Part shown: piece by piece, positions 1 to 6,356 of the stretch
How positions within the stretch are numbered: position 1 is the first letter of the stretch
Layout of the letters: each line of letters opens with the position of its first letter
From: Bacteroidales bacterium
GTDB lineage: Bacteria; Bacteroidota; Bacteroidia; Bacteroidales; UBA1556
Length of the DNA stretch: 48,552 nt
Assembly: GCA_016937295.1 (NCBI GenBank)
Contig: JAFGWF010000092.1
Coordinates: 1-48,552, forward strand
Reading direction: 5' to 3'
Program-made: the position numbers and the translations under genes
Notes under the pieces: model-generated
Told to the model about the DNA's origin: nothing
Databases searched by the model: none
What the model saw: the letters and a program-made list of their open reading frames with translations, nothing else

Positions 1-719
1 AAAACGGGTGTTCCGTCTAAAATTTCATCACCAAAAGTTGGGGAAACCATCCCTCTTAACACATGTTTATGCTCATAGTCAAGTATTGCAGGTGTATTGC
101 CGATGGAAGCATCGAGATTCAGTTGCCCACTTATCATACCAGATTCCGTAATCATAATACAAAGATTATATTTTCCTGATGGCATGGATTTTAGAAAAGT
201 TACCTCTGTATTAAGGCTTAGTATTGTATCTGAATTATTGAATGATGGGTCAAGGTGAATATATAATTCAGGCTCTTTAGGCAAAGAATCAATGAGCTTA
301 CTTACCTCCGTTGCAAATCCTCCTTTGTCCACTAAATAACCACCATTGTTTTGTTTAATTCTATTAATCATTCCAACAGGTATTCCTAAAACACCAAAGT
401 AACTAAGTAAGGAATTCCCTTCAGCACACCGGTAGTCATGATTAAAAGGAAAAGTGTCAGGTTTTGCTTGACCTGTTGTATGTAAGTACACAACTATTAG
501 TTGTTTTCCATATAATTTCTGTAAATCGGAAGCAACTTTATGCGCTGATGGACAATTATTGCATTTATGAGCGGTAAAATCCTCCAAGAGCACTTTTCGC
601 ACAGTGTCGTTGGTTAGGTTGTTGTTATTCCCTATAGTTGTGTAAGGCGCATCTATTTTATCACATGATAATCCGATGAATATCAGGGATATAAATAACA
701 AAATGGATAGCTTATTCAT
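1..719 (-). CDS. Omp28-family outer-membrane lipoprotein with CxxC (3' end runs off the window)
   Basis: Not in the ORF track because it is truncated; translated by hand from ATG 719: MNKLSILLFISLIFIGLS-C-DKIDAPY (lipobox), RKVLLEDFTAHKCNNCP (Omp28-type thioredoxin-like motif, CNNC at 552-563), later YEHKHVLR. Confidence 0.85.
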   Translation of the reverse strand, partial: MNKLSILLFISLIFIGLSCDKIDAPYTTIGNNNNLTNDTVRKVLLEDFTAHKCNNCPSAHKVASDLQKLYGKQLIVVYLHTTGQAKPDTFPFNHDYRCAEGNSLLSYFGVLGIPVGMINRIKQNNGGYLVDKGGFATEVSKLIDSLPKEPELYIHLDPSFNNSDTILSLNTEVTFLKSMPSGKYNLCIMITESGMISGQLNLDASIGNTPAILDYEHKHVLRGMVSPTFGDEILDGTPV

Positions 720-759
720 ATTTCGGTTCTTTTAAATTCTTTAAAAATTTGGTAAGGAG

Positions 760-2400
760 TTAAAAACTGCTGGTTAGACTTATTGAGAATCCATTGGTTG
801 CCGGCACCTCACGACAAACACCACCTACACAAAGGATTCCATTGCTTTGTTTTCCGTAAGTCAATGCTAATCGAGTTGTGTTCCAAGTATAACCACTGCT
901 AACTGACAAATAATGAATTTGCATGGTTTCCACCGGATTTCCATAGTTGTACTGGTCAATTACCGCTGCAAAAAAGCTTTTATAATTGTATTCGACCATT
1001 CCCAGAAACCAATTCCCCCAATCTTCTTCAGCAAAAGTGGCTTCAACATCGAAATGTAACGACTGATATTTTTTGAATTTCCACCAAACATCAGCCACGC
1101 CGGTTTGAGCCAACACATTTGGTTCTTCGTGTCCTTCAATCACATTCATATTATAAAAGATGTTATAGTAGGAAAGGATGAGATTCCATTTGGTATTAAT
1201 TTTCTTGGTAATTTTGAAATTGAAATCGTGGTAGTATTTTTCTTTTCCAATCTCGAAAAACGGTGAAGTATAACCATCTGAGGCAGCCATGCCAATAGTT
1301 GTACTGTCATTTATTTGGTTTTTTTGCAGTCCCTGCGATATGGAATAATTGAGTTCGAGACCCATTCCTGTTTTGCCGCCAAGAACTGATTTTTTCTTCA
1401 CTTTATACTGTATTGTTGCTTGCAATCCCATTTCACCATTGGCTTGAGTCGCATAAGGATAATATGCGGGCATTGTGTAGGCATGTTGAGCAGTCATAGC
1501 CGGAATATAGTTTATCGGCAGATTAAATCCGGTAGCGGTGCGGTCGGAGCGAAAGTCCATATTATCAACGCGTTTGGCTTGAAGTGACGCCCCAAATCCC
1601 TTTTTAGAATAACTCAAAGTCAACAAAACAGCATGACCATCCTTGTAAATCATATTATTCGTAGCGTTTGGGTCATTGATTTTATAACCGGCTTCGGTCA
1701 GCAAAACCCAGTTGCCTCGGTAGATATTTAATCGACCGGAATAAGCTCCCACATTGGCAGGAAGGATATAGATAGGATCTAAATCTTGTTGATACCGACT
1801 TACAAAATTTCCACCGACAAAGACCTGTGTTTTTTTATCGTTAAAACGTTTAAATGCTTGATTCAGATGTATTTCTGCATCAATGCCGCGAACTAGTCCA
1901 TCGCCTTTTCCCCAAAAGGAACGTTGTTTTCCGACAAGTCCTGTTATGCGAATGCCGGGAAAATTTGCTTTAACACGAATACCATCTATGGAATTGTCAA
2001 AACCAAGATTCCACTCCTGATACGCCCGCAAAATCATTCCGCTGCCAAACTGTTCGTAAAAGTTTCCGGCGGTGAGCTCAAATTGCTTATTCGTATATTT
2101 TGCGTAGCGATAAGGGATGCCATGCCCTTTGTAGCGTGGGTCAAACCCTTGAAGTGGAGGCATAAAAGCTTCGTAGCGCACTCCGGCCTCAAAATTTTTG
2201 TACGTATAGATTAAGTCTAAAAAGGAATTGACACCCATTTTTTCATCCGGAATCGTGGCGCCAATAATCGTATCTTCCTGATATAGTTGGGCATCTACTT
2301 GAAAACTGCCGTGCAGGGTTCCCCCTTCAGATTGACTATAAAGAGATTTTGTGGATACAAGAAAAGCCACTATGGCGATTATTCCTATAAATTTTGTCAT
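760..2400 (-). CDS. Outer-membrane beta-barrel protein, DUF6029-like, with C-terminal CxGGxC
   Basis: Signal peptide; amphipathic aromatic strands; GNFYEQFGSG..LR motif; ends CVGGVCREVPATNGFSISLTSSF with terminal Phe; sits between TlpA and Omp28 genes. Confidence 0.75.
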   Translation of the reverse strand: MTKFIGIIAIVAFLVSTKSLYSQSEGGTLHGSFQVDAQLYQEDTIIGATIPDEKMGVNSFLDLIYTYKNFEAGVRYEAFMPPLQGFDPRYKGHGIPYRYAKYTNKQFELTAGNFYEQFGSGMILRAYQEWNLGFDNSIDGIRVKANFPGIRITGLVGKQRSFWGKGDGLVRGIDAEIHLNQAFKRFNDKKTQVFVGGNFVSRYQQDLDPIYILPANVGAYSGRLNIYRGNWVLLTEAGYKINDPNATNNMIYKDGHAVLLTLSYSKKGFGASLQAKRVDNMDFRSDRTATGFNLPINYIPAMTAQHAYTMPAYYPYATQANGEMGLQATIQYKVKKKSVLGGKTGMGLELNYSISQGLQKNQINDSTTIGMAASDGYTSPFFEIGKEKYYHDFNFKITKKINTKWNLILSYYNIFYNMNVIEGHEEPNVLAQTGVADVWWKFKKYQSLHFDVEATFAEEDWGNWFLGMVEYNYKSFFAAVIDQYNYGNPVETMQIHYLSVSSGYTWNTTRLALTYGKQSNGILCVGGVCREVPATNGFSISLTSSF

Positions 2401-2417
2401 AAGGTTAAGATTATGAA

Positions 2418-2936
2418 TTATTTAATGGCTTCTCCTTTTTTGACTTTTCGAATGATTTCTATCATTTCCAGTTCGCCACCTTCCGAAAAAGTAGTGTGTT
2501 GCCATACGATTTCTCCTTTTCCATTGAGGATAAAAGTATGGGGAACCATATTGACGCCCATTGCTCGTTTAAAGTCTCCGTTTTCATCAAGGTAAACCTC
2601 ATATTCCCATTCTTTGGAATCGACAAATGGTTTAACCTTGAATGAATTACGAGTGTTGTCGATGGAAACGGCTACTAATTTTACGCCGGTTTCTTCTTGC
2701 CAATCGGCATACACTTCGTTGATTGTGGTGAGCTCTTGAATACAGGGTTTACACCAAGTAGCCCAAAAACTAATGATAATCGGATTTCCGTCATTAGCGA
2801 TGTTTGATGTGTTGAAAACACTGCCATCCAATGCTTTAATGTCGATAGATGGGATTTTCTGTAGGTTTTCGTCAGCGGTAAATCCTGCTACAAGAAGCAT
2901 TAACGGAAGCGCAATGAATAAAATTGATTTTCTCAT
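2418..2936 (-). CDS. TlpA/ResA-family thiol-disulfide oxidoreductase
   Basis: Signal peptide, SFWATWCKPC, VAVSID, cis-Pro motif VPHTFIL. Confidence 0.92.
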   Translation of the reverse strand: MRKSILFIALPLMLLVAGFTADENLQKIPSIDIKALDGSVFNTSNIANDGNPIIISFWATWCKPCIQELTTINEVYADWQEETGVKLVAVSIDNTRNSFKVKPFVDSKEWEYEVYLDENGDFKRAMGVNMVPHTFILNGKGEIVWQHTTFSEGGELEMIEIIRKVKKGEAIK

Positions 2937-3160
2937 AAGGTGTGTATTGAGTTGTGTTCCAATTGGCTGCGAAATTAGAAAAATTTTCCATTCTGCAACA
3001 CTAAAACAATTTAGGAAAATGCAGCTAAGTTCAAATTTTGTGCCTAAATTGCCGACTTATGAAACCTTCTGCGAATTAATGGCTTTCAAGTCCTTGCTCA
3101 ATTCCAACCTATTTCTAATCACGCAACTACCGTTGAACTTTGATTGGTTGAAACCGTTAA

Positions 3161-4597
3161 TTACAACCCTATGCCATAATAGGCTTTGATGCCATTAGGA
3201 TAAATTCCCTCAATGAGCACTCCGCCTTTTTTAGTGCTTAACAATTTATAAATATCATCGGGTTGATTTACCGGTTTGCGGTCGATCTTGGTAATGATGA
3301 AGTCGTCTTTAATTCCGGCATTGGCAATGATACCACGCTTAATTTCAGTAACTTGAACGCCATTTTCGATACCTAATAGACTTTTTGTCTTTTCGTCAAC
3401 TGGTTTTAGGTTAGCTCCTAACTCCAAAACGGCCTCCTCATGCGCCGAACGAAGTTTTGTGTTCCCTTTCATGTCGGTGAGCTTAACAGTAGATGTTTTT
3501 TCATTATCTTTTTGCAGATACTTTACTTCAATTGCATCACCGGGCCGATGCATCCCAACACGCTCTAACAATTCGCTCGGACTGTTTATTTCTATATTGT
3601 CAATTTCCAAAATAATATCGCCGGCTTTGATTCCGGCTTTTTCGGCTGGCAGTCCGTCAACAACACCTTCCACTAATACACCTTTAAGGTTTTTCAACTT
3701 ATAGGCTTCTGCCACTTTTGCATTGATTTCGGCAATCGAAATTCCAATTACTGCTCTTTGCACTTGTCCAAATTCTTTCAGATCTTTGACCACTTTTTTT
3801 ACAATGCCGGAAGGAATAGCAAAACTGTATCCTTGGTAATATCCAGTTCTTGAGGCTATTGCAGCGTTTATGCCAATAAGTTTTCCTTCGATATTGACTA
3901 ACGCTCCCCCTGAATTTCCCGGATTAACCGCAGCATCGGTTTGAATAAAGGATTCAATGGCCGAATTTCCAGGTAATATGTTGATATTTCGGGCTTTAGC
4001 AGAAACTATTCCTGCCGTAACTGTTGATGTTAGGTTAAATGGATTTCCTACAGCCAAAACCCACTCACCTACTTTTACACTGTCGGAATTGCCAAAAGTG
4101 AGATATGGTAATTCTTTGTCTTCAACCTTTAATAATGCTAAGTCGGTACTGGCATCTAACCCAATGGTTTTTGCTTCATACGACCTTTTATCGTTCAAAA
4201 TTACCGTAATCTTATCGGCTTGCTGAACGACATGGTTATTGGTTACAATGTATCCATCAGAAGAAATTATTACACCCGACCCGCTTGCCTTATAAACTCG
4301 ATTGCCTCCGTTGAAGAAAAAATCCTCAAGCGAAAAAAAATCGTCATAAACACTACTTTTTCTGGTAAACTCGGTTTGGATGTGAACAACAGCGTGTAGC
4401 GCATTCTCAGCACTCGAATTGAAGTCCATCATCAATTGCTTGCTTGTGGGTAGGTAAGCAGTTTGATAACCAATGTTTTGTGGCACTTCTTTTAGAACCA
4501 CTTTTGGTTCGTCTTGATCCTTAATTTGATCGTATAAAAATAATGTTAGTGTTGAGACTGCAACTGCCAAAACTATTGTTTTTAAAGCCTGTTTCAT
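3161..4597 (-). CDS. degP: HtrA/DegP (Do-family) serine endopeptidase with two PDZ domains
   Basis: GSGVI, TNNHVV, DLALLK, QTDAAVNPGNSGG; ATG 4597 is preceded by AGGAG (ORF track extends to 4618). Confidence 0.93.
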   Translation of the reverse strand: MKQALKTIVLAVAVSTLTLFLYDQIKDQDEPKVVLKEVPQNIGYQTAYLPTSKQLMMDFNSSAENALHAVVHIQTEFTRKSSVYDDFFSLEDFFFNGGNRVYKASGSGVIISSDGYIVTNNHVVQQADKITVILNDKRSYEAKTIGLDASTDLALLKVEDKELPYLTFGNSDSVKVGEWVLAVGNPFNLTSTVTAGIVSAKARNINILPGNSAIESFIQTDAAVNPGNSGGALVNIEGKLIGINAAIASRTGYYQGYSFAIPSGIVKKVVKDLKEFGQVQRAVIGISIAEINAKVAEAYKLKNLKGVLVEGVVDGLPAEKAGIKAGDIILEIDNIEINSPSELLERVGMHRPGDAIEVKYLQKDNEKTSTVKLTDMKGNTKLRSAHEEAVLELGANLKPVDEKTKSLLGIENGVQVTEIKRGIIANAGIKDDFIITKIDRKPVNQPDDIYKLLSTKKGGVLIEGIYPNGIKAYYGIGL

Positions 4598-4727
4598 GTT
4601 ATTTCTCCTTTCATTCATTTAAATATTATTTTAGTATTGCTTTATACTATGTTGAACTTAGTTGATTTGTTAATCATTTTAATTTCAACGTATTTTGTTA
4701 AAATTTGGAATAATTGACTGGTAAACG

Positions 4728-4735
4728 CAAAATTA
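4728..4735 (-). promoter_or_regulatory. Bacteroidetes primary-sigma -7 element (TAATTTTG) for degP
   Basis: Matches TAnnTTTG in the intergenic region upstream of degP. Confidence 0.5.
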
Positions 4736-4824
4736 TCCCTTTATGATATTTTTGGTTGTTAAATGTAGTTAACCAAAGTAAACGATTCTAAAGGGATTTA
4801 TGTGGACTGATTTTCTTTTTTATG

Positions 4825-4832
4825 TATGTTTG
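4825..4832 (+). promoter_or_regulatory. Bacteroidetes -7 element (TATGTTTG) for the hypothetical-dapF-GNAT-mltG run
   Basis: TAnnTTTG 22 nt before ATG 4855. Confidence 0.5.
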
Positions 4833-4854
4833 TGGTCGTTTTTACCTCATCCAA

Positions 4855-5556
4855 ATGCAACGTTATTTTTTAGGAAAATTTGTGTTTTTTATTCTTGGCA
4901 TGGTCGCCGGGTTGGGTTTATTTTGGATATATGGGATCTATATAAATCAAGATGTTTTTCAAAATTCTACTCCGGAGATGGAGCAATTAGTTGAATTACC
5001 AATTAATGAAGCCGAATTTAAAGTGAAGAAAAAGATAAAACCTAAAACAAAGAAATCCGCTCAGCTTGACGTTTCTGATAGTTTGATTATGTCGATTCCA
5101 GACAGCTTGACCGACATAAATTTGAGTTTCGAAAAATCTAATGGGGATACTTTATCTATACTTCAAAATGATTCTATCGGCAGTGTTGATTTTGTTGTGA
5201 TGCAAGATGAGAAGGTCTATGCTCGTTACTTTAAACCATCTGGCAATCCTGTGCTTTTTCACTGTGATTTTGATGCAGAAATGGATAGTATTCTGATAGA
5301 TAATTCTATGACCTTGCCCAAAGAAGGCTTGTTGGTTGAATTTTGGCGGTCGCCGGTCAATTTTTCCGGATATCGACTCTCGCGTCAAAAATTAGTGCTT
5401 TTTGGAGTTTTTGAATATGATAGCTTGTCGTTTCATTATCACGAAGAAGAAGTTTTGCTAATGAAATACAAGCAAAAATCGTTTATCCTCAAATGTGGAA
5501 ACGATTTTTCTCCCATCATCTTTAATCCTAATAAAAAGGGGCGTAAGCCATCTTAA
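4855..5556 (+). CDS. Hypothetical membrane-anchored protein
   Basis: N-terminal TM helix (FVFFILGMVAGLGLFWIYG), Lys-rich linker, C-terminal globular part (EFWRSPVNFSGY); 5 nt before dapF; start moved from 4822 because that ATG abuts the -7 element. Confidence 0.7.
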   Translation: MQRYFLGKFVFFILGMVAGLGLFWIYGIYINQDVFQNSTPEMEQLVELPINEAEFKVKKKIKPKTKKSAQLDVSDSLIMSIPDSLTDINLSFEKSNGDTLSILQNDSIGSVDFVVMQDEKVYARYFKPSGNPVLFHCDFDAEMDSILIDNSMTLPKEGLLVEFWRSPVNFSGYRLSRQKLVLFGVFEYDSLSFHYHEEEVLLMKYKQKSFILKCGNDFSPIIFNPNKKGRKPS

Positions 5557-5561
5557 ATGAT

Positions 5562-6356
5562 ATGAATCTAGTGCATTTCTCGAAATATCACGGAGCCGGT
5601 AATGACTTTATACTAATTGATAACAGAGACTTAGTTTTCAATGTTAACTCGCAATATATCCGTATGTTATGTGATCGACATTTTGGAATAGGGGCTGATG
5701 GGCTGATGCTTTTAGAAAACCACTCCGAATTTGATTTTACCATGCGTTATTTTAATGCTGATGGCGGTGAGGCAACGTTATGCGGCAATGGTGGTAGATG
5801 CATTAGTGCCTTTGCTCATCAACTTGGTGTGGTTGGTTCAACAGCTTTTTTTCTGGCATCCGATGGTCCACACAAAGCCCAAATATTTCCCAATGGATTA
5901 TCGTATATGGTTGAATTGCAGATGAATGATATTGTGCGTGACACGGTTGATAGCGACTATTCGTTTCTGAATACCGGTTCGCCACACCATGTTCAGTGGG
6001 TTGATGAGGTGTCAAATATGGAAGTTTTTCAACATGGTTCACAGATTCGTTTTTCTGAACATTATAAAGGTATCGGTGGAACAAATGTGAATTTTGTGGA
6101 GATTTTAGATTCTAATCAGCTAAAAATCAGAACTTATGAGCGTGGTGTTGAAAATGAAACTCTCGCCTGTGGAACTGGTGCAGTTGCTTCAGCTATTTTG
6201 TTTGCTTTAAAAAACAACTTAAAAGAAGGTCCTGTTGTTCTTCGAGCTGTTGGAGGTGATTTGACGGTTAATTTTTCCATAGAGCCAAATAATGTTACCA
6301 ATATTGTTCTTTCAGGCCCGGCAGTGAAGGTCTTTGAAGGAACTATTAAATTTTAG
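5562..6356 (+). CDS. dapF: Diaminopimelate epimerase
   Basis: KYHGAGNDF, GIGADG, CGNGGRC, TGSPH, ERGVENETLACGTG. Confidence 0.97.
   Translation: MNLVHFSKYHGAGNDFILIDNRDLVFNVNSQYIRMLCDRHFGIGADGLMLLENHSEFDFTMRYFNADGGEATLCGNGGRCISAFAHQLGVVGSTAFFLASDGPHKAQIFPNGLSYMVELQMNDIVRDTVDSDYSFLNTGSPHHVQWVDEVSNMEVFQHGSQIRFSEHYKGIGGTNVNFVEILDSNQLKIRTYERGVENETLACGTGAVASAILFALKNNLKEGPVVLRAVGGDLTVNFSIEPNNVTNIVLSGPAVKVFEGTIKF

Follow-up and report, generated by a model that had tools for sequence, protein, structure and literature searches.

The TlpA–DUF6029–Omp28 locus

The DNA analysed here, referred to below as the window, comprises positions 1–48,552 of contig JAFGWF010000092.1 of a Bacteroidales bacterium (assembly GCA_016937295.1; GTDB lineage Bacteroidota, Bacteroidia, Bacteroidales, UBA1556). 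Its first 2,936 nucleotides (nt) carry three co-oriented genes, which encode a TlpA-like protein, a predicted outer-membrane β-barrel of the family DUF6029 (PF19494) and an Omp28-family lipoprotein, each with a pair of cysteines (Table 1). This trio is discussed as a candidate module for thiol-disulfide chemistry in the cell envelope. The Omp28 gene is incomplete, because the start of the window is also the start of the contig.

An earlier reading of the same DNA, made without database searches (the sequence-only reading), had proposed that the cysteine loop of the barrel passes electrons from a periplasmic TlpA to a surface-exposed Omp28. The three co-oriented genes, the gaps of 17 and 40 nt and the coordinates of the cysteine pairs that it reported match ours to the base, and its description of the barrel as a protein with only two cysteines (CVGGVC) and a terminal phenylalanine is confirmed in the translation.

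Table 1. Features of the window (positions from the first letter of the contig; ORF, open reading frame; aa, amino acids)
Feature	Position	Strand	Remarks
tlpA-like gene	2418–2936	minus	172 aa; ORF list
CKPC motif of the TlpA-like protein	2742–2753	minus	residues 62–65
Gap between tlpA and barrel genes	2401–2417		17 nt
DUF6029 barrel gene	760–2400	minus	546 aa; ORF list
Loop 3 of the barrel	1990–2058	minus	residues 115–137; mean column identity 0.72; 8 residues at least 90% conserved
Loop 12 of the barrel	799–846	minus	residues 519–534; predicted C524-V-G-G-V-C529 hairpin, strand 23 to last strand
CVGGVC motif of the barrel	814–831	minus	residues 524–529
Gap between barrel and Omp28 genes	720–759		40 nt
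Omp28-family lipoprotein gene	3–719	minus	first 239 aa, 3′ end open; ORF list
Lipobox Cys19 of Omp28	663–665	minus	lipobox G-L-S-C19-D
D-T-[VTL] triplet of Omp28	603–611	minus	residues 37–39
CNNC motif of Omp28	552–563	minus	C53–C56
Intergenic region 5′ of tlpA	2937–3160	minus	224 nt; presumed to hold the promoter of the trio
DegP/HtrA-type serine protease with PDZ domains	3161–4618	minus	TIGR02037 at 426 bits; 224 nt upstream of tlpA
ORF diverging from the HtrA gene	4822–5556	plus	
ORF diverging from the HtrA gene	5562–6356	plus	

The trio is linked across the Bacteroidota

PF19494 was found in 27 of the 41 genomes of the window's genus and order, its own genome included, and in 104 of 401 evenly sampled Bacteroidota genomes, each at least 90% complete, which is about a quarter of the sample and corresponds to 59 of 180 genera. 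None of 14 control genomes contained it. At the 19 order-level loci other than the window's own, a tlpA gene lay directly upstream and co-oriented in every case, and an omp28 gene directly downstream in 15. Of the other four loci, one lacks Omp28 within the 1.5-kb flank, one has it on the opposite strand, one has it upstream of tlpA, and the last is interrupted by a contig end.

The arrangement also held in two wider sets. Eighty loci were taken from named genomes of Bacteroidales, Flavobacteriales, Chitinophaga, Hymenobacter, Lentimicrobium and Sediminibacterium and from metagenome-assembled genomes labelled Chlorobi; TlpA was directly upstream at 76 of the 77 evaluable loci and Omp28 directly downstream at 69 of 72. 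The second set comprised 40 distant loci, namely those of the lowest-scoring PF19494 members, from other families and classes (Pfam E values of 1e-7 to 1e-74). A strong TlpA match was present at 39 of these (co-oriented in 38), and a second ORF with a CxxC thioredoxin fold at 35. The remaining neighbours were variable, and only thioredoxin-fold proteins reached more than 30% of the 80 loci. The next commonest were a type I phosphomannose isomerase (24/80), an OMP_b-brl_2 barrel (19/80) and a PF02441 flavoprotein (16/80), which may represent lineage synteny or additional members of the system. The OMP_b-brl_2 neighbour is a barrel of ~207 aa. No fused form was found at E ≤ 1e-10 among proteins of 957–2730 aa, a weak test, and forms of ~700 aa were not specifically sought.

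These results indicate that the trio arrangement recurs far beyond chance. The synteny across homologues that the sequence-only reading had offered as a check on itself thus extends through the phylum.

The TlpA-like protein belongs to a distinct subfamily

The TlpA-like protein has an N-terminal hydrophobic signal peptide followed by WCKPC (residues 61–65), and its CxxC is kept in 20 of 20 order-level sequences. It matched the Pfam families AhpC-TSA (4.3e-20), Redoxin (2e-18) and Thioredoxin_8, and fell below the NCBIfam equivalog cut-offs for ResA (82.2 versus 170), StoA (78.2 versus 210), DsbE (52.8 versus 123) and TlpA (44.2 versus 230). Judged from its sequence, the cassette TlpA is a member of the superfamily and not an orthologue of any characterised enzyme. 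Its closest solved relative is the thioredoxin-like protein 2m72 (E = 2.6e-52), compared with ~1e-15 for ResA and StoA, and the cassette TlpA therefore forms a distinct subfamily. Signal-peptidase sites of the A/S-Q type, read from the sequences of most orthologues, favour a soluble periplasmic protein over a membrane-anchored one.

The window genome encodes a DsbD with DsbD_N and transmembrane domains (the gene is cut by a contig end), so that a reducing supply for TlpA appears to be available. Conversely, neither DsbB nor VKOR was found in searches of this genome, which is 92% complete. With no dedicated disulfide-forming machinery detected, a purely structural, enzyme-made disulfide is somewhat less expected. 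A second DsbD-type protein, DsbD_2, adjoins FixG/FixH, genes of cbb3 oxidase assembly.

Omp28 carries a thioredoxin-like domain and is exchanged for other thioredoxin folds

The Omp28 protein matched PF11551 at 53.3 bits (cut-off 34.9) and NF033782 at 103.2 bits (E = 1.3e-29; cut-off 150), the latter with a gene cut by the contig end. A weaker match was obtained to NF045500, 'Omp28-related selenoprotein' (E = 9.4e-10). The complete orthologue from a genome of the same genus (locus L015; 292 aa, 70% identical) served for numbering and modelling: C23, C57 and C60 of L015 are invariant over 15 Omp28 orthologues. In the named-genome set the downstream Omp28 had a CxxC in 75 of 75 cases, mostly as CxNCP (72 by regular expression and 3 by eye).

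The L015 model (mean predicted local distance difference test score, pLDDT, 83) consists of a disordered linker of ~20 residues after the lipid-bearing cysteine, a thioredoxin-like domain and a β-sandwich, and it places the CxxC at the N-terminus of the predicted helix 60–77, following strand 47–53. The top fold match was HBP35 of Porphyromonas gingivalis (5y1a; E = 2e-9, template modelling score 0.60), followed by 2axo and by the P. gingivalis Omp28 structure 2r2c. The statement of the sequence-only reading that Omp28 has a thioredoxin-like CxxC is borne out by this model and by the resemblance to HBP35, which likewise has a thioredoxin-like CxxC domain followed by a β-sandwich. The passages of PMC2907840 on this protein describe a cell-surface form and an in vitro thioredoxin activity that is lost when both cysteines are mutated. 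HBP35 differs from the window Omp28 in reaching the surface by a type IX tail and not by a lipid anchor, and the sequence identity is 14%. 2r2c is a sequence relative of the L015 protein (E = 4.3e-6) and aligns with residues 102–280 only, without the part that holds the CxxC.

The D-T-[VTL] triplet of Omp28 is conserved in the linker, just before the first strand; we take it to fit the general O-glycosylation sequon of Bacteroidota.

Lipid-anchored Omp28 is not the only partner encoded at these loci. At 14 of 76 loci, tlpA is preceded by a longer, second Omp28-domain protein, which has an ordinary signal peptide and a CxxC and ends in a type IX secretion tail. Omp28 itself is replaced in the most distant group by a CPHC protein of the Redoxin/AhpC-TSA type, encoded as a lipoprotein, as a type IX-tailed protein, or as both side by side. 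The tail family PF18962 (Por_Secre_tail) was matched in all five third-partner candidates tested, and a crude regular expression assigned 23 of 40 second-partner ORFs of the distant loci to the tail-bearing and 8 to the lipobox-bearing type. The partners that replace Omp28 are thus still lipoproteins or type IX cargo, which points to the cell surface, and, since cargo of the type IX system ends up surface-bound or extracellular, the recurring logic is a barrel between two thioredoxin folds, one periplasmic and the other at the outer membrane or the surface.

The variant at loci L130–L142 and L144, from a distant class of the phylum, comprises a TlpA (WCKPC), a barrel of ~505 aa (CTSGIC) and a small Redoxin-type CPHC lipoprotein, often with a nearly identical type IX-tailed paralogue. 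To judge by the sequences, one redoxin domain is sent by two export routes in these lineages. CPHC is the DsbA-type, more oxidising motif, and a CPHC partner suggests that some lineages may not use the trio in the reductive direction.

The lipidated cysteine of the window Omp28 is followed by D-K-I-D, and C-D-K-[IV]-[DE] is nearly invariant across Omp28 orthologues that share ~30–40% identity. The two SusD-like lipoproteins of the window genome start with C-E-K-Q-L-D and C-T-K-L-D-E-E, and the lipoproteins neighbouring them with C-N-K-D-D-E-E and C-K-K-D-D-E-D. This resemblance of C-D-K-I-D to SusD-like N-termini makes surface export, and hence surface exposure of the window Omp28, plausible.

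The cysteine pair of the barrel is essentially invariant

The barrel protein has a signal peptide and matched PF19494 over profile positions 1–538 of 538 (E = 8.4e-178; 592.8 bits, cut-off 27). No other Pfam family was matched, and a sequence search of the PDB gave no match at E ≤ 1. CxGGxC was present in 20 of 20 order-level sequences. A HMMER search free of motif bias, run against 1.84 billion representatives, returned 1160 matches at E ≤ 1e-3. Among the best 150 of these 1160, 122 representatives were at least 480 aa long and were treated as full-length. CxGGxC lay within the last 45 residues of 116 of the 122, and C-x4-C variants occurred in 4 more, giving 120/122; of the other two, one has an aberrant tail and one lacks the first cysteine. 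The motif ended 17 residues before the C-terminus in 114 of the 116, and 112 of the 122 proteins ended in phenylalanine. Among the 40 distant members, 39 had C-x4-C, the lone exception having an aberrant tail. Conservation of both barrel cysteines, on which the sequence-only reading depended, is therefore essentially complete.

One distant barrel (G147, positions 3501–5021 of locus L144, minus strand) was considered as a possible selenoprotein. Its lone in-frame TGA falls in the region aligned with strand 13 and at neither cysteine, so that selenocysteine was rejected; the codon is probably a defect, either a nonsense mutation or a sequencing error.

The barrel is predicted to have 24 strands and an extracellular cysteine hairpin

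An AlphaFold2 model of the barrel, built from a 20-sequence alignment (mean pLDDT 84.6, predicted template modelling score 0.77), has 24 long strands as assigned by DSSP. The connections follow the canonical pattern: 11 of 12 loops are at least 7 residues long, and 9 of 11 periplasmic turns have at most 4 residues. In BAM-assembled barrels both termini lie in the periplasm. With both termini there and with alternating connections, the model would place the cysteine hairpin in the last extracellular loop, loop 12. DSSP assigns a mini-hairpin there (521–525 and 528–532), and the mean pLDDT of residues 521–530 is 64, compared with 86–91 for the flanks. Conservation across the 122 representatives is highest in loops 3 and 12 of the barrel, both with a mean column identity of 0.72. 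By analogy with the L3 loops of porins, loop 3 may sit inside the lumen.

Comparison of the fold by Foldseek and VIA-align gave only generic matches to large barrels. The best full-length superpositions were with the 24-strand ushers FimD (Z 18.4, root-mean-square deviation (rmsd) 3.9, 371 residues aligned) and PapC (Z 17.3), consistent with the strand number of the model. Partial matches were obtained to AlgE (Z 18.5) and Wzi (Z 15.9), both over model residues 28–438 only, and to Occ/OprD-type channels and chitoporin (Z 17–18.5). The ushers align ~370 residues at rmsd 3.9–4.2, compared with ~310–330 residues at rmsd 5.5–5.9 for the channels.

Two other functions could be read from these matches. 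The passages of PMC9603273 that treat DUF6029 suggest a polysaccharide-export porin, from an HHpred similarity to the Wzi barrel. The presence of Wzi and AlgE among our fold matches and the phosphomannose isomerase gene near 24 of the 80 loci agree with that suggestion. However, the model has 24 strands, and the two matches cover only part of it; Wzi and AlgE are 18-strand barrels. In addition, none of the nine commonest annotated neighbour clusters is a polysaccharide export protein, and no neighbours other than the thioredoxin-fold proteins exceed 30% of the 80 loci. Neither strand number nor gene context thus supports the suggestion, and we consider it barely credible.

The barrel could alternatively be a pore for a small thiol, a disulfide, a metal or a haem-type substrate, which a thioredoxin-fold protein on each side of the membrane would process, with the hairpin as gate or binding site. 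The similarity to Occ/OprD-type, AlgE and chitoporin channels and the conserved loop 3, which recalls the constriction loops of porins, agree with a channel. So does HBP35, the closest structural relative of Omp28, which binds haemin and is needed under haemin limitation according to the passages of PMC2907840 that deal with it. A channel nevertheless appears improbable, because the channel matches are shorter and looser than those to the ushers, 24 strands are far wider than known small-molecule channels, and no transporter, binding protein or metabolic gene is found among the conserved neighbours.

The barrel and Omp28 are weakly predicted to form a complex

Complex prediction was carried out with alignments and with signal peptides removed. 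For the barrel and Omp28, both taken from the same-genus locus, the median mark was 0.51 (runs of 0.51, 0.53 and 0.36), and the best of three controls reached 0.07. Of 80 solved complexes, 58 reached this mark, as did 2 of 110 mismatched pairs; with values of at most 0.60, those reaching it were just 7 of the 80 and both of the mismatches. The barrel–Omp28 runs agree in at least 97% of contacts, and the pLDDT of the partner is at least 87. These predictions weakly suggest a complex between the barrel and Omp28.

A probable thiol-redox pathway ending at the outer membrane or cell surface

Very likely, the three proteins act in one thiol-redox pathway that ends at the outer membrane or the cell surface. 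Our preferred reading, which we put at roughly 45%, is that the trio forms an envelope module through which thiol-disulfide chemistry starting in the periplasm reaches the outer face of the outer membrane. TlpA would be the reductase, a soluble thioredoxin-fold protein of the periplasm that the DsbD of the cell keeps in the reduced state. The 24-strand DUF6029 barrel would form a complex with the Omp28 lipoprotein in the outer membrane, and the thioredoxin-like CxxC domain of Omp28 would act at the outer mouth of this barrel or further out. Reducing equivalents could pass from TlpA to the barrel and on to Omp28 by exchange with the C-x4-C hairpin of loop 12 dipping into the lumen, or from TlpA to Omp28 directly if the two thioredoxin folds touch inside the wide lumen, an arrangement that would resemble the sheath of MtrCAB. 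Omp28 would then reduce or isomerise some surface or extracellular disulfide substrate. Within this scheme, we infer the surface position of Omp28, the complex, the direction of the electrons and the role of the hairpin.

Several routes are conceivable, and passage via the barrel cysteines is just one of them. In its favour, the pair is invariant, lies in one of the two most conserved loops and is predicted to be mobile; the hairpin also recalls the C-x5-C pair of the N-terminal domain of DsbD. In this form the barrel would be a redox conduit, whose loop-12 hairpin shuttles between a TlpA docked in the lumen and surface thioredoxin-fold proteins, in some lineages selenocysteine proteins. We regard the conduit as a tentative possibility, with the odds leaning clearly to the other side.

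Several points weigh against the module. Thiol exchange within the trio is itself something that we infer. The hairpin would lie in the last extracellular loop, so that a periplasmic TlpA could meet it only via the lumen, and a C-x4-C over a tight GG turn also fits a purely structural hairpin staple. Two sources of evidence are uninformative: the 80 named-genome loci cannot be used for the conservation of the barrel cysteines, because they were retrieved partly by a pattern of the cysteine motif, and a co-loss test gives no information, because every family member has both the cysteine pair and the partners. Finally, the passages of PMC5080379 on lipoprotein export give C-X-K-(D/E)2-X as the optimal signal and K-(D/E)2 or Q-A-(D/E)2, at +3 to +5 after the lipid-bearing cysteine, as the minimal one, K-D alone being insufficient in a reporter. 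C-D-K-I-D-A of the window Omp28 has the lysine at +3 followed by a single acidic residue (+5) and misses K-(D/E)2, which leaves surface exposure unproven.

The sequence-only reading is accordingly upheld in part. The invariance of the cysteines, the phylum-wide synteny and the redox type of Omp28 stand, and its cysteine hairpin is indeed found just before the last strand of the modelled barrel; the model puts that hairpin on the extracellular and not the periplasmic side, and a staple or a direct contact of TlpA with Omp28 explains the same data. Its surface Omp28 gains from the type IX-tailed paralogues and replacements and from the SusD-like N-termini, and loses by the unmatched minimal export signal.

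One alternative is a scaffold. The barrel would house or anchor Omp28 as a plug or lid, TlpA would reduce Omp28 directly, either in the periplasm before export or via the lumen, and the hairpin would be an inert staple. Stapled hairpins typically show such a C-x4-C across a GG turn, and the extracellular position of the hairpin by topology agrees with such a role. In addition, the barrel equals in width the 24-strand ushers, through which folded domains pass, and lipoprotein-in-barrel or lid complexes (LptDE, BtuB–BtuG and SusCD) are among its fold matches. Conversely, the apparent lack of DsbB and VKOR means that no dedicated machinery for structural disulfides was detected. The conservation is also unusually strict for a staple, as 63 of the 122 representatives keep just these two cysteines and no further one, and the pair persists to Pfam E values of ~1e-7. 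Moreover, the pLDDT of the hairpin is the lowest of the C-terminal part, as expected of a mobile rather than a rigid element. We consider the scaffold unlikely.

Alternatively, TlpA could serve maturation alone, keeping or setting the cysteines of the barrel and of Omp28 in their correct state during passage through the periplasm, with no later crossing of electrons. The spacing of the genes is tight, often with overlaps, and the cassette TlpA is a subfamily of its own, both as would suit such a factor. LptD is a precedent, being a large barrel whose disulfides need periplasmic oxidoreductases. This explanation accounts neither for the constant presence of a CxxC thioredoxin fold as third partner, exchanged for another such family in distant lineages, nor for the selenoprotein relatives indicated by the NF045500 match. 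We therefore hold it to be very improbable.

Comparison with known systems

The envelope module parallels the pathways from DsbD/CcdA to TlpA, ResA or CcmG. Both have an exported thioredoxin-fold CxxC protein, a DsbD in the genome and a chain of cysteine pairs across a membrane. Those pathways, however, use a helical protein to cross the inner membrane and go no further than the periplasm, whereas the trio adds an outer-membrane β-barrel and an outer-membrane or surface thioredoxin fold. The description of the trio in the sequence-only reading as an outer-membrane analogue of DsbD is thus acceptable as a functional analogy and does not extend to homology, as the barrel matched PF19494 only and is a β-barrel, not a helical protein.

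MtrCAB (6r2q), which moves electrons across the outer membrane, has an analogous architecture: its jointly encoded members are a redox protein of the periplasm, a very large barrel and a redox lipoprotein of the surface. MtrB was matched by the fold of the DUF6029 barrel (Z 13.3, 362 residues aligned). MtrCAB uses haem cofactors and the trio cysteine pairs; their sequences are unrelated, and the similarity between the barrels is generic. LptDE, SusCD and BtuB–BtuG provide precedents for a lipoprotein in or on a large barrel. Unlike the ushers and these lipoprotein–barrel pairs, the DUF6029 barrel has no plug, no N- or C-terminal usher domains and no TonB box, and it shares no sequence similarity with them.

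The passages of P. gingivalis proteomic papers that list PG2173, PG2174 and PG2175 place them in outer-membrane vesicles and give no function there. No paper assigning a function to the trio was found in a literature search, outside which supplementary data lay, in line with the statement of the sequence-only reading that it knew of no characterised system of this kind.

Surface thioredoxin-like proteins, such as HBP35, Omp28 and the redoxins secreted by the type IX system, are widespread in Bacteroidota. We know of no source of reducing power at the outer membrane, and how these enzymes are recycled is for that reason an open question. The trio, with three genes and three invariant cysteine pairs in about a quarter of the sampled Bacteroidota genomes, is a concrete candidate for such recycling. 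If thiol equivalents do pass through the barrel, this would represent a new class of outer-membrane function and give a role to DUF6029 and to an outer-membrane lipoprotein that is immunogenic in a periodontal pathogen. A conduit that uses the hairpin would, if real, be the first path for thiol-disulfide electrons over a bacterial outer membrane, a β-barrel counterpart of DsbD and a thiol version of MtrCAB. Even with a purely structural hairpin, a phylum-conserved complex of barrel, lipoprotein and reductase would be unstudied biology.

Flanking region

A scan of the intergenic region 5′ of tlpA for sigma-70 promoters and terminators gave nothing over the shuffled expectation; the scan did not include Bacteroidota promoter types. 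The HtrA/DegP-type protease encoded upstream was considered as a fourth cassette member and rejected, as the same-genus genome has an M16 peptidase upstream of the trio and an ABC ATPase downstream. A link of the trio to PorA was likewise rejected: the same-genus locus has no porA gene beside the trio, and the passages searched in two PorA papers say nothing of the neighbouring genes; the window itself stops short of where a porA gene could be. The two plus-strand ORFs beyond it diverge from the HtrA gene, and the second of them, by the look of its sequence only, may be a diaminopimelate epimerase.

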